From a virus, in the IMG/VR virus record IMGVR_UViG_3300025154_000076, positions 8,080-72,079 of that record: a stretch of 64,000 nt of DNA; one strand, written 5' to 3'. A model generated the notes under the pieces. It ran no database searches, had not been told where the DNA came from, and saw only the letters and a list, made by a program, of their open reading frames with translations. Shown piece after piece: positions 2,345 to 64,000 of the stretch. How positions within the stretch are numbered: the stretch's first letter is position 1; every line of letters starts with the position of its first letter. Made by a program: the position numbers and the translations under genes.

Positions 2345-2701
2345 TCATAATTCAAATTGGCTTAAATCATTTAATTGTAAATAGTCTACAATATCAATCT
2401 GTACATCTTTAATTTCAAATTGGTATATCTGTTTTGTACTTGCATCTACACATATCACTGTTGGTACTTCTAAAATATCCCTTTTTAATCCTTCTGAACC
2501 CATTATTTCCCTTGTTTGCTTTCCCCAACGAAGGAAATATGCAGGTTTATAGACAGGCTCGGTGGCTTCTAAGGCATTAATTTCTCTTGCCATTCGATCA
2601 TGTTTTTCATAATTGGGTTCCCTTAATAAGGCCTCTCTCATTTTATCCAAACGAACCTCTTTCTCATTATAATAAATCATATTTATCTTGCCTATACTCA
2701 T
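2345..2701 (-). CDS. hypothetical protein
   Basis: 118-aa ORF overlapping upstream gene by 4 nt. Confidence 0.65.
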   Translation of the reverse strand: MSIGKINMIYYNEKEVRLDKMREALLREPNYEKHDRMAREINALEATEPVYKPAYFLRWGKQTREIMGSEGLKRDILEVPTVICVDASTKQIYQFEIKDVQIDIVDYLQLNDLSQFEL

Positions 2702-3114
2702 AGCTTATACCCTGCTTTGTTTTTCAATAAAGTTAAAGTTTTTTCTGTGAAATGAACAAATTTATGCCCTTGTCTTTTTCCTGATATGGAAATAAAGGGT
2801 TGCACAAAATCAATTTTATCTGCAAACTGATTAACACTTGCCAATGATTTCCATCCCATAAGGTCTGTAAATTGTCCTAATTCACATATATTATATGACA
2901 TAAGGGATGCCACCTCTTTATTGGTTAGCTTCAGTTCTCCCCTGTCAATCTTTTGTATTGATGTGAGAAGTTTCTTTGGCCGTTTAACTTTTGTTATTTC
3001 AAATACATCAGCATCCACCAATTCTCCCTGGTCAACCTCTTTTTTAGGTTTTAACCCCTTATCCGGCTTTTCCTTTTTCTTCCCTTCCCAAAAGGTGTCT
3101 ATTATATTATTCAT
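2698..3114 (-). CDS. hypothetical protein
   Basis: 138-aa ORF, translationally coupled. Confidence 0.65.
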   Translation of the reverse strand: MNNIIDTFWEGKKKEKPDKGLKPKKEVDQGELVDADVFEITKVKRPKKLLTSIQKIDRGELKLTNKEVASLMSYNICELGQFTDLMGWKSLASVNQFADKIDFVQPFISISGKRQGHKFVHFTEKTLTLLKNKAGYKL

Positions 3115-3712
3115 CTGGTAAATAGTTGTTTTTAAATTTATTATCTAAATATTCAATATACATTCTAAACTCCCTGTTCGTTTCTATTAAATTATTCACT
3201 GTTTTACAGGCATGTAACACTGTGGCATGGTCTTTATCTCCATATTGCTGTCCTACCTTCTCCAATGATGTCCTTTTTATTAATTTCATGGCAAAATACA
3301 TAGCTATCTGCCTGCACTGAACCACCTCTCTCTTTCTTGTCTTTATTAATATACTGTCCTCTTTAAGCTTAAAATATGATTCCACCTCTAATTTAATAAT
3401 GTTGTAATTTATCTTCTCTATCCGGTCTGTTTTAGTAAAGAGTAAAACATTATCCCCTTCTTTTATACCCATTATTTTGTCAAATAACTCGGCTTTGTCC
3501 AATAATGATAAGGCTTTTATTTCTGATTTATTATAGATAATCTTTTGCTTACCATGAAAAACTACAAATAAGGGGTTCGATGTCCATGCCTCCTTCATGC
3601 TGTTTAGAACACCCTTATAAACCCCACCATTGTCCTCCGCTATTATCTTGTATTCCCTATTGAACCCTTGTACTCCCTTACTTTTACTTATTAAGCTTAG
3701 TATGTTCATCAC
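3107..3712 (-). CDS. protein with DnaA C-terminal (domain IV) HTH
   Basis: RKREVVQCRQIAMYF...SLEKVGQQYGDKDHATVLHACKTV is the Bac_DnaA_C signature; no AAA+ domain. Confidence 0.85.
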   Translation of the reverse strand: MMNILSLISKSKGVQGFNREYKIIAEDNGGVYKGVLNSMKEAWTSNPLFVVFHGKQKIIYNKSEIKALSLLDKAELFDKIMGIKEGDNVLLFTKTDRIEKINYNIIKLEVESYFKLKEDSILIKTRKREVVQCRQIAMYFAMKLIKRTSLEKVGQQYGDKDHATVLHACKTVNNLIETNREFRMYIEYLDNKFKNNYLPDE

Positions 3713-36509: not shown

Positions 36510-38777
36510 TTAATATTTATACACCTTCACGAATTCACTTAAATCCACCTCGTCATTATTGGCATGTTGGAGTATTTCCTTATACTTTGATTTAGAACCT
36601 TCTAATGCTAATGCTACTGCTGTAAAACGGTCATAATGGGTTAAGTCAAATAAACCCCTTATCTGCAAGCAATCATCAATAAATTCAATATGATTTAATG
36701 TTGTTCCCCTTTGCTGAATGTAATCTCTCACATTCCTAAACAACTTTTGTTTTGATTCATCTGATTTTGTATCATAGCCATAAAAAGGTGTCAACTCCTC
36801 AAACCCTGATTTATTTATCTTTATCTGCCTCATTAGATAACCATGATAATTCCATTGTCGGAACCATTCCTCTATTACCGGAACGTTTCTTTCAGGATTC
36901 ATTATGCCTCCCCAATAGATAGATGCTTTAAGAGCTTCCTCTGCAAAATCTTTTGTTTCAGGTGGTCTTTTTTGATAGGTGGCAACAAGTTTAAATGTAT
37001 CCCATTCTTTTATGTCTTTCTTATCATCAAGAGAAGGGTCATAATCCCTTACTACAGACAATCCTCCATCAGAACCTTTTTTATTTGATTTAGTCCGACT
37101 AAAAGTAAAAGCATCACCACCTAATGTATATTGCGGATCAGCAGGATAATAAACCCCTTCATTTCTGTATCTCTTATTACGAACCCTTTCTAATGGTTTT
37201 TCTGATATTATCCAATCAGCATCACTTCTTTCAGCACAAGAAACAAAAACTACATCATTTCCGAAAATCCCATTCTGCCATTCTAAAAAACCAAAAATAC
37301 AAGGGTCATAATCAAATTCAAGTTCACCCCTTCTAACTTCAAGTATCTCTCGATTGAAATTTATTTCATCAGCGGAAGGGGTAAAACATTCCCTATATGT
37401 TAATGGTAATTTCCTTACATATCCTGCAAGTCCATCAAAATCTTTAGCCTTTCTGTATTTTGCCCTGTTAGCCATTATGTCATCCAGTGAACCCTCTGTT
37501 ATCATTTTCCCATCTACTCCCTTTATAGGTTTTTCTGGTGTATGCATTACAGATGCTCCATATTCATCAATAAAACCACCCCTTCCATCAGCAGCACTCA
37601 TAAACACATTAACTAAACCCGATAAGGTTGACCCATTCTTTCGATCTCCCCAATGTGATTGTTCACATAGTTTAGTATATTGTTTCATTGCTTCAGCAGT
37701 AGTTTCTTCAACTGTTGTAGTGTAAATCATCCATCCATTAATATTACCTCCATCATTTAAACATTCCTTCAATGTCTGATGCCTGGCATGAACATCTTCT
37801 AATTTTGTTTTACCCGATTCATCCACATTCAATATGTTTATCCTTCTCTTATCATAGTAACTCTTTCCGGCAGTAGTGGCAAAATCTGATACTGAATTAA
37901 GTCCTAACCTATCATCCATAAATGTTCCCTTTCCTCCGATATGTATTGCACCAGGCTTTAATGTTAGCCTTGTTTTTACATCAGTGGATCCTTCATGCAT
38001 GGGTTTAAAAAAAAATGGTAGATTATTAAACGGATATACAAGGTGTTTAGTAAACATTTCTTCTCCGTTATTTGAATCCATTCCTTGTATTCCACCTTCC
38101 CAATTCATGTGAGAAGTAATTAGGTTACAATGTATAGATAATGCCCTTGATGACTTACCTGCTCTACGAGCATCCATATTATTAGTACCATGTAGAACCC
38201 TTTTACCCCGATCAATCCCTAATTCATCTTCAGTAAGGTTAAATAGATATTCCTGAACAACAAACCACCTTCTATCTCTATCCCTATAATCAGGTAGTTT
38301 ACCTGTAAGCAATAAATAATAATTCAGGTAATACCAATGCCACCCACAAATAAATGTAGGCTTGCCTTTTATAAAAAACCATTTACCATTAAACCTATGA
38401 TACCATTGTGTTTTTATCCAATTAATTTCATCCTTAAATTCTGCTTTGTTTGCTTCAAGATATGCCCATATTTCCTCCACAGTCATAAATACCTCCATCG
38501 GTTTTGTTGTCTTTCTTCGCTTTTCACGAAGTAACATATCCGGGAGTTTTTTTAGCTTATCAGGTATTTGTTCGTATTGGAATTTCTGATCTTTAGGTTT
38601 TTGGTTAAACCCTTCTATCAGGTGTATATCTGGGCAAGAAGGAAGTTTAACCCTTATCTCTTGTAAATCCCTGTCATTACTATTTACAACAACCCATGTA
38701 TCTTCCGGTTCATAGCTTTTAAGAATATTAACATGAACTGTGGGATATTTCTTTTTTAGTTGTTGTAGATTCAGCAT
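36510..38777 (-). CDS. terL: terminase large subunit
   Basis: Walker A-like ARRAGKS, Walker B NVDESGK, nuclease GGDAF...SDGG and HYD; crAss-like ICGWHWYYLNY motif. Confidence 0.9.
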   Translation of the reverse strand: MLNLQQLKKKYPTVHVNILKSYEPEDTWVVVNSNDRDLQEIRVKLPSCPDIHLIEGFNQKPKDQKFQYEQIPDKLKKLPDMLLREKRRKTTKPMEVFMTVEEIWAYLEANKAEFKDEINWIKTQWYHRFNGKWFFIKGKPTFICGWHWYYLNYYLLLTGKLPDYRDRDRRWFVVQEYLFNLTEDELGIDRGKRVLHGTNNMDARRAGKSSRALSIHCNLITSHMNWEGGIQGMDSNNGEEMFTKHLVYPFNNLPFFFKPMHEGSTDVKTRLTLKPGAIHIGGKGTFMDDRLGLNSVSDFATTAGKSYYDKRRINILNVDESGKTKLEDVHARHQTLKECLNDGGNINGWMIYTTTVEETTAEAMKQYTKLCEQSHWGDRKNGSTLSGLVNVFMSAADGRGGFIDEYGASVMHTPEKPIKGVDGKMITEGSLDDIMANRAKYRKAKDFDGLAGYVRKLPLTYRECFTPSADEINFNREILEVRRGELEFDYDPCIFGFLEWQNGIFGNDVVFVSCAERSDADWIISEKPLERVRNKRYRNEGVYYPADPQYTLGGDAFTFSRTKSNKKGSDGGLSVVRDYDPSLDDKKDIKEWDTFKLVATYQKRPPETKDFAEEALKASIYWGGIMNPERNVPVIEEWFRQWNYHGYLMRQIKINKSGFEELTPFYGYDTKSDESKQKLFRNVRDYIQQRGTTLNHIEFIDDCLQIRGLFDLTHYDRFTAVALALEGSKSKYKEILQHANNDEVDLSEFVKVYKY

Positions 38778-46963: not shown

Positions 46964-47066
46964 CTATTGACTGTAACTATGTTATAATGTCAGGTCAAAA
47001 AATTGCACCAAAAATTAATTCAAAATAAAGGGTTATAACCCATTATTCACATTAAAAACACATACC

Positions 47067-50861: not shown

Positions 50862-51052
50862 CGTTTAGTATATGAAAAAAATTTATTTAACAACAAGGGC
50901 ATATCTCATTCAGTAGAATGGTTGAAATGCTAAATGAGGAGGCAAAACGTGAAATAACAGCAGAAGAAGCTGGATTATTTTCAAGACCTGAATGTGTTTG
51001 TGAACTACCCACACACTAAAAAGATGTGTGGGCTTCCTGCACAACGCATAGC

Positions 51053-52171
51053 CTAATGGCTTACGTTAGCGTACAAAGGGTTGTCCCTAACCCCAAAATT
51101 CTTTATATTATATGCAGCATTCAAATCCCTATCTATTGAATTATTACACTTATCACAATTGTAAGTTCTATCTGAAAGTTTTAAATCTTTCTTGTGATTT
51201 CCACAATTAGAACATACTTTACTGCTTGGTTCAAATCTGCCAATTACAACAAGATTTTTACCTTGCCATTCAGTTTTATATTCAAGCATTGTTCTTAATT
51301 GTCGCCAACCCATTTCAGATATGGCTTTAGCTAAATTATGGTTCTTAACCATATTACTAACTGCTAAATCTTCTAATACAATTGTGTTATACGTGTTTAC
51401 TAATTCAGTAGATATTTTATGCAAGTAATCAGTCCTTTGGTTACGGATTTTTTCTTGCAATAATGCTACTTTTAATTTTTGTTTTTCTCTATTTATTGAA
51501 CCTTTCTGTTTTCTTGCAAAGCTTCTCTGTTCAACTCTTAATCTTCTTTGTTGCGATTTGAAAAAGTTTTTATTTTCATACACCACACCATCAGAAGTAA
51601 TTGCTAAATCTTTAATCCCAAAATCAATACCAACAGATGTTTCGGATTTAATTGGTTTTTGCTTTGGTTTTTCTATTTGTGTATCAACCAATATTGATAC
51701 AAAGTATTTACCAGTAACAGTTTTGCTTAATGTAACTCTTTTTGGTAATCCTTTGAACAATCTATGATAATCAATAGCAACCTCTTTTAATTTAGGTAAT
51801 TTTAAAATGTTGTTATCAAAATCAACCTCAAAACCTTGTGGAAATGTAACTGACTGCTTAGAGTATCTATTCTTGTATTTAGGAAACTGACCTTTGCCTT
51901 TAAAAAAGTTTTGATATGCTGTATCTAAATTGATAATACTATGTTGTAGTATTTGACTTGGACATTCTTTAATGTAATCAAATTCCTTTCTTAATTCTGG
52001 AAGTTGTTTAATTAAATCATATTTAGATATTGATGTTTTATTTGAAGCATACGCAACAGTCTTGGTCTCTAAACCAAGATTATATACCAATCTATTTACA
52101 CCAAAATACCTTTGTAATTGGTTTTTTTGGTCATCCGTTGGGAATATTCTGTATTTGTATCCTTTAAGCAT
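51053..52171 (-). CDS. tnpB: TnpB RNA-guided endonuclease
   Basis: GYKYRIFPT HTH; RuvC GIDFG / VLEDL / DRDLNAA; CSNC...CDKC Zn finger. Confidence 0.95.
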   Translation of the reverse strand: MLKGYKYRIFPTDDQKNQLQRYFGVNRLVYNLGLETKTVAYASNKTSISKYDLIKQLPELRKEFDYIKECPSQILQHSIINLDTAYQNFFKGKGQFPKYKNRYSKQSVTFPQGFEVDFDNNILKLPKLKEVAIDYHRLFKGLPKRVTLSKTVTGKYFVSILVDTQIEKPKQKPIKSETSVGIDFGIKDLAITSDGVVYENKNFFKSQQRRLRVEQRSFARKQKGSINREKQKLKVALLQEKIRNQRTDYLHKISTELVNTYNTIVLEDLAVSNMVKNHNLAKAISEMGWRQLRTMLEYKTEWQGKNLVVIGRFEPSSKVCSNCGNHKKDLKLSDRTYNCDKCNNSIDRDLNAAYNIKNFGVRDNPLYANVSH

Positions 52172-52317
52172 ATATTATTAAATAGTCTAAACTTTTGTAA
52201 AAGTACAACATTTTTATCTAAATTACAAGTTTTGGTTAAATTTATTTTATTTGATACCGTATTTTGTTTAAATCATTCCGTCTTTGGTTGTAAATAATTT
52301 AAACAAAATACTACATT

Positions 52318-52722
52318 ATGCAATCAAATTACATTTCTACAAATCATTCAAAACACTATTTAAAATGTCATCTAATTCTCGTTACTAAGTATCGTAAAAA
52401 TATGTTAGTTGGTCAATTAAATGATGATTTAAAAGATATATTCAGTTCCATAGCAGATAACTCAGATTTTGAAATAGAAGTTATGGAGTCTGATGTAAAC
52501 CATATTCATTTCTTAATTAGGTACATACCTCGCCTATCTATATCCCAAATGGTTCGTAGGCTTAAACAAGAATCTACTCGTCAGTTATGGTTATTGCATC
52601 ATACTACTTTACGTCAGTATTATTGGTATCGTAAAATACTTTGGAGTGATGGGTTCTTCGTTTGTTCAATAGGTGAAGCAAGTCCAGATACTATCCGTCA
52701 ATATATTTTAAGCCAAGGTTAA
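52318..52722 (+). CDS. tnpA: IS200-type Y1 HUH transposase
   Basis: HLILVTKYR, HIH, LKQES, LWSDGFF, IRQYILSQ. Confidence 0.95.
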   Translation: MQSNYISTNHSKHYLKCHLILVTKYRKNMLVGQLNDDLKDIFSSIADNSDFEIEVMESDVNHIHFLIRYIPRLSISQMVRRLKQESTRQLWLLHHTTLRQYYWYRKILWSDGFFVCSIGEASPDTIRQYILSQG

Positions 52723-52788
52723 TCATACCTTTGTCGCTTACATCCCATCCACGCTAAAAAGCGATGAATGGGTTTTACGCTCCTTTTT

Positions 52789-52947
52789 ATCAATAGGTAT
52801 GATAATAACAGCAGCAGGAACTAAGCATCCCAGAGAAAGCCTGCTTCCATTTTCATTATAGTGTTCACAATCCATACATTCAACATCTTTTGTCATTGTA
52901 GCTGTATTCAAATGATCACACTCCGCATTAATATAATCACATCTCAT
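52789..52947 (-). pseudogene. small Cys-rich gene interrupted by the IS
   Basis: ORF 52738..52947 reads into the IS left end right after ATT GAT. Confidence 0.45.
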
Positions 52948-58698: not shown

Positions 58699-59337
58699 AT
58701 GAAAAAAGTAAAAGGTTATAAAGCTTATAATAAAGGCTTAGTTTGTAAAGATTTTCAATTTGAAGAAAATAAAACATTTACAATTGAAGGAGAACCCATT
58801 ATTTGTCAGAAAGGGTTCCATTTTTACGAAAATCCTCTTGATACACTTAATTATTATGATTTGTGCGAAAGTGAATTTACCACCGTAGAAGCAATAGGAA
58901 ATGTAACTCATAATGAAGATACCAAAATAGCAACAAATAAAATTAAAATAGGTAAAAAGCTAAGTTTACATGAATTTATAAATGCAAGTATAGCTTATTT
59001 AATAGAACAAAATAAAATTGAAGCTGCATCGGGAAATTATAGTAAACTGGCTGCATCGGGAGATTATAGTAAACTGGCTGCATCGGGAGATTATAGTCAA
59101 CTGGCTGCATCGGGAGATTTTAGTAAACTTGAATTAAACGGTAACAAATCGGTAGGTGCAAACATTGGAATAAATGGAACAATAAAGGGAGTTAAGGGTT
59201 CATGGATAACCTTAGCAGAATATAATTCTAATTACGAATGTATATGTATAAAATCTGCAATTATTGATGGTATAGAATTAAAAGAAAATACCTGGTATAA
59301 ATTAAAAAAAGGATTATTCACTGAAACAAACAATTAA
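58699..59337 (+). CDS. conserved phage protein with 9-aa AASGDYSKL repeats
   Basis: GYKAYNKGLVC.DFQF...C..GFHF.ENPLD N-terminus; LKENTWY C-terminus. Confidence 0.8.
   Translation: MKKVKGYKAYNKGLVCKDFQFEENKTFTIEGEPIICQKGFHFYENPLDTLNYYDLCESEFTTVEAIGNVTHNEDTKIATNKIKIGKKLSLHEFINASIAYLIEQNKIEAASGNYSKLAASGDYSKLAASGDYSQLAASGDFSKLELNGNKSVGANIGINGTIKGVKGSWITLAEYNSNYECICIKSAIIDGIELKENTWYKLKKGLFTETNN
59023..59129. repeat. 27-bp tandem repeat x4
   Basis: GCTGCATCGGGAGATTATAGTAAACTG units. Confidence 0.9.
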
Positions 59338-59731: not shown

Positions 59732-59917
59732 GTGGAAACAGTAAATAGTACAACAAAGAAAATAGATAAAAAAAATGCTAAGATATTTGTTTTGTTAATT
59801 TTTATTTTTGGTTTAGTTGCTTTCTTTAGCTATTTGATTGAAAATTATGAACCCATTATTTCGGATAAACCCGAACCCATTCTTGAAGGATGGGAGGAAA
59901 TAAAAATTGTTGACTAA
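59732..59917 (+). CDS. small membrane protein
   Basis: TM segment; stop codon overlaps site S1 core. Confidence 0.45.
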   Translation: METVNSTTKKIDKKNAKIFVLLIFIFGLVAFFSYLIENYEPIISDKPEPILEGWEEIKIVD

Positions 59918-60040
59918 CGGTGGTGGTATGGTTAGTTGCCGATTGCGGACGACACACTATCCATCGACACAGAATTACAAGCGGGTGGTAACGCTTAAAA
60001 TTAGTACTAATACGGCAATTAACTATACCACGGGTTAGCT
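59912..60040 (+). repeat. attC-like hairpin site S1
   Basis: GACTAAC...GTGGTATGGTTAGTTGCCG / CGGCAATTAACTATACCAC...GTTAGCT. Confidence 0.8.
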
Positions 60041-60062
60041 GCTGGGCTTTATTAAAATCAAA

Positions 60063-60308
60063 ATGAACTTATACGAAATAGAAGGAAAACTAAGAGACAA
60101 AGCAGACAAATGGGAATTGCATAATGTCCAAAATGAAAATCGGGAATTGAAAAGCAAAATACACGAACTGGAAAGGAGGATAGGCAATTTAGAAGGAGTA
60201 AATAGCAATAAGAATTATTTGCTTGAAAGGCTTTTAAACTTGCTTGCAGAAAACGTTTCCCTAAATGAAATATCAAATGAACTTTACGAGCTTCGGGGCA
60301 GTCTTTAG
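60063..60308 (+). CDS. coiled-coil hypothetical protein (cassette)
   Basis: 81 aa between S1 and S2. Confidence 0.7.
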   Translation: MNLYEIEGKLRDKADKWELHNVQNENRELKSKIHELERRIGNLEGVNSNKNYLLERLLNLLAENVSLNEISNELYELRGSL

Positions 60309-60314
60309 CCTTGC

Positions 60315-60521
60315 AGCTAACGACTACGGCTATGCACATGTAATTTTAACGACTTAAAAACGAGGAATAATGACACAAGAAGAATTTAACAAAGCACCGT
60401 TATTAAACCAAATACTGTACGATGAAACAGGTATGTTGGTAGAGAACCACCCAAGTATTGCCGAAGCTATGGAGAAATACCACCAAGCTAAGTTAAAATT
60501 ATTGGGTATAGCCGATGTATC
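60315..60521 (+). repeat. attC-like site S2 (degenerate right core)
   Basis: AGCTAAC-GACTA-CGGCTATGC ... GTATAGCCG-AT-GTATC. Confidence 0.55.
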
Positions 60522-60702
60522 TGTAAAAATTACGGATATGATACACATAATTAACTTTGTAGTAAAATCATTGGCAACAGTAATATTATTTTTTCCAATT
60601 GGTGGATGTTTGACATTACTATCAATAGTATTTTGGGATGCAAAGTATCTCGAAGTTGGGAATGATATATTGGAAAAAATGATATGGAAGAAAAGGCAGT
60701 AA
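60370..60702 (+). CDS. hypothetical membrane protein starting inside the S2 loop
   Basis: LGIADVS is encoded by the S2 right arm; TM segment. Confidence 0.6.
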   Translation: MTQEEFNKAPLLNQILYDETGMLVENHPSIAEAMEKYHQAKLKLLGIADVSVKITDMIHIINFVVKSLATVILFFPIGGCLTLLSIVFWDAKYLEVGNDILEKMIWKKRQ

Positions 60703-60712
60703 TTTTCACTGT

Positions 60713-61091
60713 GCCTAACGTGACGCAAGTATGAGTAGTGCGACTTTGGAACACGAAACTTTGAATTAATAAAAGAACTAATAACAAATATTTTATGGCT
60801 TGGAAAACCGACAAACTTCCTTTAGAATACCTACAGCAAAGAGTAAGGTATTATGAAAAGGCAATCAAGAAAACAAAAAAATTAAAAGAAACGGGTTTGA
60901 TTGTTGGCGATATAGAATACACAGACGAAGATTTTGAGAGGTCTATAAAAAATTGTGAATACCTTTTGAATGAATTTAAAAAAGCAAGCTATCTAATTGC
61001 TGAAAATATGGAATAAAATATTTGTTATGGCATTTGGAACACTAAACTCGATTTTAAGCACAGCAGTAAGCATTACTTATACTTGTTAGTT
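60713..61091 (+). repeat. attC-like site S3 with an ORF inside its loop
   Basis: GCCTAAC...CAAGTATGAGTAGTGC / GCATTACTTATACTTG-TTAGTT. Confidence 0.75.
60795..61016 (+). CDS. hypothetical protein nested in the S3 loop
   Basis: 73-aa ORF with AT-rich leader. Confidence 0.6.
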   Translation: MAWKTDKLPLEYLQQRVRYYEKAIKKTKKLKETGLIVGDIEYTDEDFERSIKNCEYLLNEFKKASYLIAENME

Positions 61092-61113
61092 GCAGTACTT
61101 TATTTAAAATTAA

Positions 61114-61845
61114 TTGATTATGAAATATATGGGAAGCAAGGCGAGATTTACAAAAGAGATTTTGCCGATTATTTTAAAAGATAGAACAAACGAGCAGTGG
61201 TACATTGAGCCGTTTGCTGGAGGTATGAACGCAATTTGTGAGGTTGGGGGCAAACGAATAGCAAACGATATTCATTACCATTTAATTCAAATGTGGAAAG
61301 AACTTGTTAGCGGTTGGATTCCAAAAAAGATTACCAAAGAAGAATATTTAGAAGTAAGAACAGACCAGAGCAAATACCCTGCATATTTTGTTGGGTGGGT
61401 TGGTTTTAACTGCTCTTATTCGGGCAAATGGTTTGGTGGATTTGCTGACGACTACCCTGAAAGTAGAAGAAATAAAAATGGAATTTTACCAAATTACCAA
61501 ATGGAAGCAATAAACAACGTCCCTAAACAGGTTGAAAAAATGAAAGGTGTAATATTTCAAAATAAACCATACTATAAATTGGATTTGCCACCAAACAGTA
61601 TTATTTATTGTGACCCACCATATAAAGGCACAACTAAATATGCTAATAACTTTAACCATATCATTTTTTGGAATTGGGTAAGAAATATAAGCAAACAAGG
61701 ACACACTGTATTTGTGAGTGAATACAATGCACCTTCCGATTTTAAATGTGTTTGGGAAAAAGAAACAAATAGTCAACTATCAGCAAACGGCAAAATTGGA
61801 GGCAACAAAGTATCAACGGAGCGTCTTTTCTTGTATTGCAACTAA
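61114..61845 (+). CDS. DNA adenine methyltransferase (Dam/D12 class)
   Basis: MKYMGSK, YIEPFAGG, IYCDPPY, FVSEY. Confidence 0.92.
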   Translation: MIMKYMGSKARFTKEILPIILKDRTNEQWYIEPFAGGMNAICEVGGKRIANDIHYHLIQMWKELVSGWIPKKITKEEYLEVRTDQSKYPAYFVGWVGFNCSYSGKWFGGFADDYPESRRNKNGILPNYQMEAINNVPKQVEKMKGVIFQNKPYYKLDLPPNSIIYCDPPYKGTTKYANNFNHIIFWNWVRNISKQGHTVFVSEYNAPSDFKCVWEKETNSQLSANGKIGGNKVSTERLFLYCN

Positions 61846-61893
61846 CGGACGGGTATAAACCATCGTTTTAATGTGGTTTATACCTTGTCAGCA
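61840..61893 (+). repeat. attC-like site S4
   Basis: AACTAAC-GGAC-GGGTATAAACCA / TGGTTTATACCT-T-GTCAGCA. Confidence 0.75.
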
Positions 61894-61932
61894 ACTGGCA
61901 CGGTTAAATTAGTAAAAACTTAAATTAAAGTT

Positions 61933-62583
61933 ATGAATTTATTAGAATTATTTGCAGGATCGAGAAGCGTGGGAAAAGCAGGTGAACAATTAGGAATGAA
62001 TGTTTTTTCAGTCGATTGGGAACAATACGAAAATATAAACCTTTCAATTGATATTGGAGAATTAACAAAAGAAAATGTACCTTTTATTCCCGATGTAGTT
62101 TGGGCTTCACCTGATTGCACTACTTACACAATTGCTGCAATAAGCACACACAGAAATAAAACAGAACCAAAAAGCGATTATGCTAAAAAATGCGATACCG
62201 TAAACCAACACTTTATTGGATTAATTAAAGAATGGTTGGTTATAAATCCAAATATGGTATTTTTTATTGAAAATCCAAGAGGTATGATGAGGCATATGGA
62301 ATGGATGCAAGAATTTAAACGACATACTGTTTGGTATTGCCAATATGGAGATGATAAGGCAAAGCCAACAGATATTTGGACTAATTCAAAAACTTGGATA
62401 CCACGACCAGAATGCCACAATTACAAGTATGATAAACAAGGTAATGTAATTAATAAACATTGCCACCACGAAAGTGCAAGGCGTGGAGCAAAAACAGGAA
62501 CACAAGGCAGAAACGGACATTATGAACGATCAAAGATTCCACACGAACTTTGCAATGAGGTACTTCGTAGTGCTTGTTGCTAA
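61933..62583 (+). CDS. short C5-cytosine DNA methyltransferase-like protein
   Basis: LLELFAGS (motif I), WASPDC (IV), IENP (VI), YCQYG..KPTDIW. Confidence 0.8.
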   Translation: MNLLELFAGSRSVGKAGEQLGMNVFSVDWEQYENINLSIDIGELTKENVPFIPDVVWASPDCTTYTIAAISTHRNKTEPKSDYAKKCDTVNQHFIGLIKEWLVINPNMVFFIENPRGMMRHMEWMQEFKRHTVWYCQYGDDKAKPTDIWTNSKTWIPRPECHNYKYDKQGNVINKHCHHESARRGAKTGTQGRNGHYERSKIPHELCNEVLRSACC

Positions 62584-62706
62584 CGTTGAAGCTATGACCA
62601 GTAAAGGATTACGGAGCGATGAATTATCAAAATACACCGAACTGGATGTGAGCTACAACGTTGGATTACCCACTAAAACCTTTATTGGTTATAGCTTGTG
62701 TTAGCA
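62578..62706 (+). repeat. attC-like site S5
   Basis: TGCTAAC...AAGCTATGACCAGTAAAGG / CCTTTATTGGTTATAGCTT...GTTAGCA. Confidence 0.8.
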
Positions 62707-62746
62707 AATCGGCTTTTATTATTAATTAATTTAAAATCAAATAAAT

Positions 62747-63130
62747 ATGAGAGAATTAAATTTTAAAGCATGGGATAAGTCTCAAAGATATATGGCTTAT
62801 CAAGGAAATCCAGATTTAGAAACACTATCGAGTTTTATGTTTCATTTTGGGGATGACATTGTAATGCAATCAACTGGGTTTAAAGACAAAAATGACCGTG
62901 AAATTTTTGAAGGTGATATATTGAGCGATTGGAATGATGTTGATGGAAAACAAGTTCAGTCTTTTATACAAGTTTTTTGGTGCAATCAGTCGGGAGCATG
63001 GAAATTAGACAACTCATTTAAAAATGATATGTCAAGTGGCGATTTGTTAAGTGATGAATTGTCTGATTTTGCTTATGAAATCACTGGCAACATATATGAA
63101 TCGCCTGAATTGTTGCAGCGGTCTGTTTAA
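62747..63130 (+). CDS. YopX-family protein
   Basis: MRELNFKAWD...MQSTGFKDKNDREIFEGDI...EITGNIYESPELL. Confidence 0.9.
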   Translation: MRELNFKAWDKSQRYMAYQGNPDLETLSSFMFHFGDDIVMQSTGFKDKNDREIFEGDILSDWNDVDGKQVQSFIQVFWCNQSGAWKLDNSFKNDMSSGDLLSDELSDFAYEITGNIYESPELLQRSV

Positions 63131-63136
63131 GCTGTT

Positions 63137-63207
63137 TGCTAACGAACGGTGGTATGGTGCGGCTTGTGTTGCGCCTTCGGCAAGCTGCATTATACCACAT
63201 GTTAGGC
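63137..63207 (+). repeat. attC-like site S6
   Basis: TGCTAAC...GTGGTATGGTGCGGCTTG / CAAGCTGCATTATACCAC...GTTAGGC. Confidence 0.8.
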
Positions 63208-63243
63208 ACAGCACTTATTTTTTAATCTAAAATTAATCGAAAT

Positions 63244-63864
63244 ATGAGAATATTATTAGCGTGTGAAGAAAGCCAAACCGTAACAATTGAAATGCGAAAA
63301 CTAGGACACGAAGCATTTAGTTGTGATTTATTAGAGTGCTCAGGTGGACACCCCGAATGGCACTTACAACAAGATGTAACAGAACTATTAAAACAGCACT
63401 GGGATTTAATTATTGCTTTTCTACCTTGTACATTTTTAACAGTTACCGGGAATAGATGGTTTAATATTGAAAGATATGGTGAAAAAGCAATCCAACGCCA
63501 CAAAGACCGTGAATTTGCAATTAAGTTTTTCAAAATGTTTGCTGAGTCTAATTGCGAAAGAGTTGCAATTGAAAATCCAGTAGGCATAATGAGTAGTGAA
63601 TGGCGAAAACCCGACCAAATTATCAATCCTTTTCAGTTCGGTGATGCGTTTGAAAAAAAGACTTGTTTATGGCTAAAAGGTCTTCCGAAATTAGAACCTA
63701 CAAACATAGTTGAGCCACCTAAACGAACGGAGTTTGCAAGTGGTAAAAGTATGCCAACTTGGTACGCAGATGCTTGGAGACTTCCAAAAGAGGAAAGAGC
63801 AAAATTAAGGTCAAAAACATTTGAGGGGATTGCGAAGGCTATGGCGATGCAGTGGGCTTCCTAG
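63244..63864 (+). CDS. short C5-cytosine DNA methyltransferase-like protein
   Basis: LLACEES, IAFLPCT, IENP, PFQFGD..KKTCLWL, RSKTFEGIAKAMAMQW. Confidence 0.8.
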   Translation: MRILLACEESQTVTIEMRKLGHEAFSCDLLECSGGHPEWHLQQDVTELLKQHWDLIIAFLPCTFLTVTGNRWFNIERYGEKAIQRHKDREFAIKFFKMFAESNCERVAIENPVGIMSSEWRKPDQIINPFQFGDAFEKKTCLWLKGLPKLEPTNIVEPPKRTEFASGKSMPTWYADAWRLPKEERAKLRSKTFEGIAKAMAMQWAS

Positions 63865-63870
63865 TATTGT

Positions 63871-63966
63871 GCCTAACGTTTTGCGTATAAGAGATGTGGC
63901 ACTTATACGAATGTTTAAATCAAGGCACAAAGCCCAATGTGCCATATCTTTTATACGCTGTTATGT
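63871..63966 (+). repeat. attC-like site S7
   Basis: GCCTAAC...GCGTATAAGAGATGTGGCAC / GTGCCATATCTTTTATACGC-T-GTTATGT. Confidence 0.8.
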
Positions 63967-64000
63967 GCTGGGCGGTTTATCAGCACTAAATTTAATTTAA

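Follow-up and report, generated by a model that had tools for sequence, protein, structure and literature searches.

What kind of element separates the single genes at the end of this phage sequence, and what moves them? The DNA is contig C1, a 72,079-base virus contig (IMG/VR record IMGVR_UViG_3300025154_000076), of which bases 8080-72079 form the 64,000-nucleotide stretch analysed here, the window; positions are those of the window unless prefixed C1. From 59914 onwards, hairpin-forming sites alternate with one gene each. We consider it about 80% probable that these genes form a cassette array belonging to an integron-like system of site-specific recombination, one common in Bacteroidota phages and in Bacteroidia chromosomes.

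C1 was rated 100% complete by CheckV and closes into a circle, C1:1-119 being identical to C1:71839-71957. The original prediction, made from the window alone, expected the array to extend past position 64000. Indeed, it crosses the contig junction and continues through C1:1-1975 of the same circular contig with three more sites. Its full length of about 5.8 kb comprises nine cassettes and ten cores. Of these cassettes, four carry a DNA methyltransferase gene and one a gene for a YopX protein; no family match was obtained for the others. The nearest cultured relatives of a cassette gene were found in Cellulophaga phages (80% amino-acid identity), and the nearest cassette copies in bacterial bins lay in metagenome-assembled genomes (MAGs) of Lutibacter, Saprospiraceae and Flavobacteriales, affinities that make a Bacteroidota host likely. 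The runs holding the phage DNA were groundwater metagenomes.

All seven sites proposed for the window (S1 to S7) were present on the + strand, six of them with long stems, and S2 was as degenerate as had been described (Table 1). The pattern CTAACG-N5-12-TAT matched the window seven times, on the + strand only and always within 59914-63888; shuffled windows gave 2.04 +/- 1.32 matches, and none of 100 shuffles reached seven. On the 72-kb contig, eight of the ten + strand copies of CTAACG lay within the array. The consensus first put forward, CTAACG...TAT-stem-ATA...GTTA, held for its cores, which in the window read [CA]TAAC ... GTTA[GT] with the outer two positions often breaking the R/Y (purine/pyrimidine) rule. 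The TAT and ATA were frequent without being universal, and the spacers had to be corrected to G plus 2-5 nt on the 5' side and 0-3 nt on the 3' side. The stop codons at 59917, 61845 and 62583 were the TAA of a core, as stated.

The claim that flanks pair across each gene and poorly within a site was also upheld. Over the ten variable bases beyond the core, cognate flanks paired at a mean of 7.75/10 (n=8) and non-cognate flanks at 3.78/10 (n=56), and the observed cognate sum was reached in 6 of 100000 permutations. The two flanks of one site scored 1.5-5.5 of 10. In many relatives flank pairing was near-perfect (13.5/14).

Gain or loss of an entire cassette was visible in the assembly. The final 127 bases of the contig (C1:71953-72079) are those of C1:1324-1450. 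After ...GTGCCTAACG, TTTTGCG (S7) follows at the contig end; at the contig start the next letters are GTGGGC, belonging to S8 and the C5 methyltransferase, and ...ATATAACG TTTTGCG comes only after these. The long and short forms differ by 1209 nt, bordered by the 5-nt repeat TAACG, the long form carrying S8 and the C5-cytosine methyltransferase cassette between CCTAACG and TTTTGCG. In Logan unitigs of runs X1 and X2, a 1205-nt unitig ended at 63878 and a 30,947-nt unitig started at 63874, the breaks expected if two sequences lead into a branch point and two lead out of it. X1 and X2 may derive from the source sample itself, in which case the unitigs are a second assembly, not a second population. 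No listed contig spanned 63878/63879 when the contigs of four runs were aligned. Four other apparent joints (57522>62264, 59778>60867, 63275>63355 and 58530>57000) had a short side of 20-33 letters, mostly below or only just at the trusted level, and were not used. Coverage in runs X5 and X6 was patchy at a depth of 2-4, and uncovered cassettes there carry no meaning.

The same indel locates the exchange. The S7 hairpin remained with its downstream gene, and S8 appeared and disappeared together with the C5 methyltransferase, which places the break at the 5' core. Judged from sequence, the crossover falls at the TAAC that precedes the G, and a hairpin moves together with its downstream gene; which bond within T-A-A-C(-G) is exchanged is not distinguishable from sequence. 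For the D12-class methyltransferase cassette the original prediction had proposed a circle joint of 61846 to 61085; because the crossover is 5', the joint now predicted is 61846 to 60720.

Re-sorting among phages followed the same borders. A 761-nt unit (hairpin, methyltransferase, ...GCCGATAAC) was present in 10 fetched viral loci at 90.5-100% identity, and the 60 bases beyond either border were unrelated (median 25-28% identity) save in three loci of one phage. This amounts to eight independent contexts on each side, both borders falling at xxAAC. The 216-amino acid (aa) methyltransferase unit recurred in locus L087 among other neighbours, with both breaks at CTAAC and the S4 hairpin preserved through compensatory changes, and locus L007 matched the 206-aa unit to the last base of the core and no further. 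Two adjacent cassettes in common with this array were found in none of the loci searched (L006-L098). A backbone gene (58699-59337) used as a probe for close phage relatives retrieved one locus only, at 44% identity over 69 residues, and cassette order was therefore not comparable between sister genomes. In run X2, a 47-kb contig at about 5x the phage's depth carried a 91%-identical S5 hairpin (10 differences; aligned to 62591-62699) with cassette flanks that differed on both sides, and a second phage with the same array type was therefore present in the same water sample. Cassettes are thus gained, lost and re-sorted as units, as in integrons. The indel and the re-sorting bear out the proposal that each gene is a mobile single-gene unit; that it is inserted by way of a circle, the other half of that proposal, we infer.

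The structure of the sites was examined in a wider family. A site scanner that counted G.T as a pair was applied to 938 kb of loci. Sites on the gene-sense strand numbered 89 and those on the opposite strand 19, of which 8 fell in Polaribacter phage P12002L, a phage with minus-strand genes. The counts for the two strands, together with an Infernal model, argue that the strand bias is real. For base-pair statistics, duplicates with identical arms were collapsed and eight sites from the present phage were included manually, giving 75 unique sites. Minus-strand matches in L006, L009, L012, L020, L030, L049, L052, L058, L064 and L070 were judged false and excluded, as were everything in L083, L093 and L029, L012 past 6000, L042 at 1490, L087 at 5472, and L052 at 4461 and 5954. 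All four Watson-Crick pair types occurred at each stem position. Mismatches were strongly skewed, with 133 G.T (G in the 5' arm), 19 T.G, 15 C.A and 1 A.C, or 152 of the G.T and T.G kind versus 16 of the C.A and A.C kind. The 5' spacer was mostly 5-6 nt with an initial G in 68 of the 75 sites, the 3' spacer was 0-3 nt, and the cores read xxAAC / GTT[AG]x. Cassettes ended in the consensus A-T(72/75)-T-G-NNN-[CA][TC]AAC and started with GTT[AG][TG]-N5-G(52/75), and the T at the end and the G at the start therefore form a conserved T.G in the outer stem.

RNAalifold analysis of 37 sites gave 16 pairs, 14 of them with compensatory double changes, and one G.T (G.U) was kept in 36 of the 37 sites and a second in 25. 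Folding with DNA parameters favored the + strand over the - strand in all five window sites tested, for example at S1 (-21.9 and -17.1 kcal/mol, respectively) and S6 (-20.0 and -15.0 kcal/mol). A scan with a covariance model had been suggested for the contig, other phages and Bacteroidota, and matches were obtained in all three. The model (R1) was built from 37 sites, 34 from other phages and most from recombinase-linked arrays. On the phage's own genome it matched seven array sites, all on the + strand, S7, S8, S6 and S4 most strongly and S1, S5 and S9 more weakly (Table 1); beyond the array there were two unrelated weak matches (E>0.5). S4, S1, S5 and S9 were matched although absent from the training set, and S2 and S3 were missed.

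The loops fell into length classes of about 9-12, 33-36 and 65-76 nt. Many sites in unrelated phages share a loop of about TTGTA..CAC.TTTCAAATTTAGCACAAA (alignment A1, 33-36 nt loops), as at C1:140-175 and 63903-63938. The 65-76 nt loops often contain an AT-rich leader and a start codon, and the 3' arm and core are therefore translated. In the much longer S3 loop, a 73-aa open reading frame (ORF) is bracketed by direct copies, at 60740-60760 and 61030-61050, of a sequence of roughly 19 nt (TTTGGAACAC.AAACT...), as if the ORF had entered the loop in a separate insertion event.

A role in RNA has to be weighed against such a pattern. The hairpins may be elements of a polycistronic early transcript that act in its processing, stability or translation control, with re-sorting arising incidentally when phages recombine in the ordinary way at short shared stretches. 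The sense-strand folding with wobbles compatible with G.U would suit such elements, as would the position of the sites just upstream of start codons, the starts inside loops (S2, S9 and cassettes of the L009 type) and the common sequence of the 34-nt loops. Homologous recombination, however, would leave flanking homology, and identity between contexts ended within the 4-5 nt core. Rfam found nothing at gathering score in the whole window; with the threshold relaxed to E<=5, it gave only two chance-level matches (E 0.5-0.7) inside the S3 loop. A scan for intrinsic terminators made 5 calls versus 2.7 expected, none on the stems of S1-S6 and one on a small hairpin inside the S7 loop. The RNA reading is also at odds with the clustering of the sites beside a tyrosine recombinase and with their orientation in bacterial chromosomes, both described below, and we regard it as improbable.

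No tyrosine recombinase is encoded in this phage. The original prediction, finding none in the window, had allowed for one elsewhere in the genome, and that part failed: PF00589 had no match at E<=1 in the complete genome, and seven array-linked recombinases searched against it by tblastn gave a best E of 0.36. The enzyme would then be supplied in trans by the host or another phage. A search for a tyrosine recombinase linked to such sites had been suggested, and one was found in other phages. The array-bearing contig L019 encodes one of 267 aa just past its array. Its best family was XerA (186 bits, below the cut-off of 220); against the integron-integrase model TIGR02249 it scored 132.7 bits (cut-off 265) in two stretches that skip the middle of the model. 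Its best solved relative was XerA 5hxy, and IntI4 2a3v aligned over residues 12-175 only. By these comparisons the protein is not an IntI; it appears Xer-like and without the IntI insert.

The link between recombinase and sites was consistent across the family. The L019 recombinase had 227 IMG/VR relatives, of which 80 were fetched. In these loci 136 scanner sites lay upstream on the recombinase strand (4.18/10 kb), 7 downstream (0.15/10 kb) and 10 on the opposite strand. Where 1.5 kb or more of upstream sequence was present (52 loci), a site was found in 45. The Infernal model gave 183 matches at E<=0.01, all on the recombinase strand; by our reading of the match table, 180 of them were upstream and the three downstream were all in L251. 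Among the 45 loci listed, 19 had a last cassette that ended 52-53 nt before the recombinase ATG, and in relatives a conserved T-A/C-C/T-TATATGTAAA motif followed the last cassette. This place after the last TAAC is attI-like in appearance and is a candidate target, TAAC|TACTATATGTAAA. The end of the phage's own array (C1:1976-2009, TAAC then TCGTTTATAATGTCAA...) is loosely like the motif, and a 77-aa gene follows the last core there instead of the Xer-like recombinase.

A sequence of about 37 nt (TAAC, T, 3-4 nt, TTATAATGTCA..TCAAAAAATTG.ACC) occurs twice in the genome, at 46965-47010 and C1:1966-2010. Both copies follow a gene that stops at ...TAAC and are loosely like the attI-like motif of other phages; the copy at 46965 might be a second, nearly empty platform. 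A sigma-70 promoter scan was at chance level. A conserved array-adjacent gene was sought by clustering the ORFs of 35 array loci and the phage's own genome, and only the query methyltransferase recurred (30 loci), the next clusters having at most 7.

The same sites and enzyme occur in bacterial chromosomes. Model R1 matched 73 of 151 sampled genomes of the class to which the Lutibacter MAG belongs (including the unpublished G123; E-values are rough). In the four clusters fetched, the scanner found 43 sites in 66 kb on one strand (G157), 16 (G038), 7 (G145) and 14 (G136). In all four, a recombinase homologous to that of the phages (34-47% identity, E 1e-34 to 1e-66) stood at the array's 3' end, by the site strand, adjoining the array in G157, G145 and G038 and about 9 kb off in G136. 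The chromosomal genes and recombinase are opposite to the sites, with 139 ORFs versus 23 on the site strand in the four arrays. In 32 phage loci, 263 ORFs were on the site strand and 8 opposite, and the phage cassettes are therefore flipped relative to their sites. Since the sites are antisense to the genes in all four chromosomal arrays, sense-RNA folding is not the conserved function of the family. Within the 66-kb array of G157, two more tyrosine recombinase copies were observed at local positions 2628-3416 and 36734-37522 (L271, L272), about 31% identical to the phage recombinases and on the site strand.

These data also bear on the best known enzyme of this kind. If the sites were canonical attC sites served by a host IntI, the array would be an ordinary cluster of attC sites lacking an integron integrase (CALIN) that trades cassettes with host integrons. 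The cores xxTAAC...GTTAxx do resemble R''/R'. Qi et al. 2023 (PMC9892861) report 17 CALINs in 10,705 phage genomes screened, some in virulent phages such as P12002L, with methyltransferase cargo; recombination in E. coli of five of six phage attC sites by IntI1, two of the six from P12002L; and one P12002L site, in the region of the present family, called attC by HattCI+Infernal. With the scanner P12002L has eight sites of this family, and IntI1 activity on its sites speaks for an IntI. The enzyme itself is rare among the genomes searched, however: a true IntI (TIGR02249 above cut-off) was present in 1 of 401 genomes of the class with the nearest MAG matches and in none of the five MAGs bearing the closest cassette copies. 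The one genome with a true IntI, G309, had no hairpin array visible within 8 kb of it. Moreover, the array-linked recombinase is Xer-like and without the IntI insert, and the polarity of the phage genes is reversed relative to integron cassettes. Service by a host IntI is accordingly judged very unlikely.

Least probable, and scarcely credible to us, is that the phage's own IS200-type Y1 transposase TnpA moves the cassettes as single-stranded hairpin-ended units. The gene matches PF01797 (E 2.9e-33), and IS200/IS605 enzymes act on one-strand hairpins and insert 3' of a short target with no duplication, features that the cassettes share in their strand-specific hairpins and in insertion beside a short target. 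On the other hand, TnpA stands head-to-head with a 372-aa TnpB-like gene, an ordinary IS605-type insertion separate from the array. Its end hairpin (about 52745-52775) is unlike the cassette sites, PF01797 was above cut-off in 1 of 25 other array-bearing records, and a cassette has one hairpin, not one per end; subterminal hairpins at both ends with a linked Y1 TnpA were not found. That end hairpin is imperfect and reaches into the terminal part of a short ORF on the - strand (52738-52947).

Table 1. Coordinates of the array and of the IS605-type insertion (plain numbers, window; C1, contig; bits, score on covariance model R1).
Feature	Position	Strand	Details
IS605-type insertion	50880-52800		TnpB-like gene 51053-52171 (-, 372 aa, zinc-ribbon motifs); TnpA 52318-52722 (+, 134 aa)
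Site S1	59914-60048	+	Core CTAAC 59914-59918, G 59919; right core GTTAG 60034-60038 plus flank
S1 stem	59923-59941 / 60013-60031	+	19 bp, 2 G.T; 24.4 bits
Cassette 1	59919-60321	+	S1 hairpin and 81-aa gene (60063-60308), no Pfam or PHROG match; terminus ...CTTGCAGCTAAC; flank pairing 8.5/10
Site S2, degenerate	60317-60521	+	CTAACG core intact; stem of just 9 bp (60326-60334 / 60505-60514); no right core
Cassette 2	60322-60719	+	110-aa gene (60370-60702), start within S2 loop; flank pairing absent
Site S3	60715-61099	+	Core 60715-60719; right core GTTAG 61085-61089
S3 stem	60726-60741 / 61070-61085	+	328-nt loop enclosing the 73-aa ORF (60795-61016)
Cassette 3	60720-61846	+	S3 hairpin including loop ORF, and D12-class N6-adenine DNA methyltransferase (61120-61845; PF02086, E 1.2e-15); flank pairing 8.5/10
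Site S4, minimal form	61842-61901	+	Stem 61852-61862 / 61874-61884; 11-nt loop; right core GTCAG 61887-61891; 33.0 bits
Cassette 4	61847-62584	+	S4 hairpin and 216-aa DNA methyltransferase (61933-62583; phrog_757, E 2.2e-26)
Site S5	62580-62714	+	Stem 62589-62607 / 62679-62697; right core GTTAG 62700-62704; 24.4 bits
Cassette 5	62585-63143	+	S5 hairpin and YopX-family gene (62747-63130; PF09643, E 2.7e-17)
Site S6	63139-63215	+	Stem 63149-63166 / 63181-63198 (4 G.T); right core GTTAG 63201-63205; 41.2 bits
Cassette 6	63144-63877	+	S6 hairpin and 206-aa DNA methyltransferase (63244-63864; phrog_757, E 4.6e-66; 297 IMG/VR relatives)
Site S7	63873-63975	+	Stem 63883-63902 / 63939-63958; 77.6 bits; polymorphic junction after 63877/63878
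S7 cassette	63878-64000, on as C1:1328-1686	+	S7 hairpin and 71-aa gene
Site S8	about C1:114-207	+	Followed by C5-cytosine methyltransferase (PF00145, E 6e-48); cassette C1:120-1328, 1209 nt; 75.5 bits
S7, second copy	C1:1323-1421	+	Followed by 71-aa gene
Site S9	C1:1682-1810	+	Loop contains start of 74-aa gene; 17.2 bits
Last cassette	C1:1687-1975	+	74-aa gene beginning within S9 loop
Last core of array	C1:1971-1975	+	CTAAC

Set beside known systems, the cassette array is closest to integrons and CALINs. It shares with them single-gene cassettes between folded sites with xxAAC...GTTxx cores, gain and loss exactly at the core, methyltransferase cargo, and hybrid sites, the start of each cassette pairing with the end of the same cassette. 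The array has ten cores and, as in a CALIN, no integrase. It differs in the enzyme linked to such arrays elsewhere, and there is no IntI beside it. The site lies upstream of the gene, it is the sense strand that folds, pairing between flanks extends over about 15 nt rather than 7, and ORFs or start codons may sit inside the loops. Conserved G.T mismatches stand where integron sites have extrahelical bases. Nor does it follow the integron arrangement of a gene-distal 3' G|TT crossover with bottom-strand folding and the site downstream of the gene; the crossover rule given by Qi et al. 2023 (PMC9892861) is G|TTRRRY. With the Xer-type arrays of Bacteroidia chromosomes and other Bacteroidota phages it shares the site family, as judged by model R1; in both of these groups the recombinase family sits at the same array end. 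It departs from them in that the recombinase is absent from the 3' end of the array in this phage and the chromosomal genes and recombinase run opposite to the sites.

Two other phage systems offer partial parallels. CTX phage of Vibrio integrates by Xer-dependent recombination of folded single-stranded DNA, the whole genome entering at dif; here too an Xer-type recombinase would act on a single-stranded DNA hairpin mimicking a duplex site with an imperfect centre, but single genes move within an array. The PeSLs of T4-type phages, mobile regulatory cassettes, are promoter plus stem-loop repeats that act through homologous recombination. There, too, stem-loops flank small accessory genes that lie in a plastic part of the phage genome and are shuffled between relatives. 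In the present system, by contrast, stem sequences vary, a 4-nt core marks the borders and there is a linked tyrosine recombinase.

The integron-like model that accommodates these results is as follows. The unit would consist of G, a 2-5 nt spacer, the hairpin, a 0-3 nt spacer, GTTxx plus about 10 nt, the gene, and about 10 nt plus xxAAC. Its hairpin is proposed to fold in the + (sense) strand as single-stranded DNA. In the circularised unit the ends would pair as well. The whole would then form a single long stem, made imperfect by conserved G.T mismatches and by an asymmetric internal loop surrounding the crossover, and this shape is that of a folded attC site. Strand exchange is predicted in or just after TAAC on the 5' side of the site; with exchange there, units would be gained and lost exactly between successive cores. 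The enzyme would most likely be a small Xer-like tyrosine recombinase without the integron-integrase insert, which this phage may have lost or never had, the array being served in trans by a host or a co-infecting phage. The cargo, with its four methyltransferases, may be mainly an anti-restriction kit.

Several observations weigh against this model or limit its support. The hairpins lie on the mRNA-sense strand with pairs compatible with G.U, which would also fit an RNA role, and the scanner's counting of G.T favors one strand. Of the 183 Infernal matches at recombinase loci, 24 belonged to the 37 training sequences of the model. S2 is decayed, and the S5-S6 and S9-end cassettes pair only with a 1-nt slip. 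The genome encodes no recombinase, and a PF00589 gene was present in just 3 of 25 array-bearing viral records, which were found through the methyltransferase cassette and are mostly fragments. The short-form junction rests on assemblies of possibly one sample. Finally, no circle junction or excision product was seen among the contigs compared, which could not have shown one.

Elsewhere on the contig, copies of the complement of the 10-mer ATAA[AGT]GGGTT were located between genes within C1:3340-8480.

Integrase-less attC clusters of phages are already known (Qi et al. 2023, PMC9892861), and the present array is a variant in its enzyme, site details and gene polarity. Literature searches found no paper linking an Xer-type recombinase to such arrays in phages or Bacteroidota. 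New here are an array that turns over in a natural population though the phage has no recombinase, and a clean natural marker of the crossover position. We advance a fuller scenario tentatively, as possible but, taken whole, doubtful: a recombinase-less lytic phage would have its anti-restriction cassettes re-sorted in trans by an Xer-like recombinase of a host array or of a co-infecting phage, drawing on a separate pool with flipped sites in which the hairpin doubles as an expression signal, such that the machine would be shared with the host and the gene pool would not. In that pool the hairpin would also lie in the mRNA leader or even inside the coding start. If the enzyme is host-derived, phages would re-tool their methyltransferase defences against restriction with borrowed machinery.

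Integrons are the textbook gene-capture device and have been thought to depend on a special integrase. The array described here would place integron logic in phages of a phylum where IntI is nearly absent among the genomes searched, and the system bears on the origin of integrons from Xer recombination.

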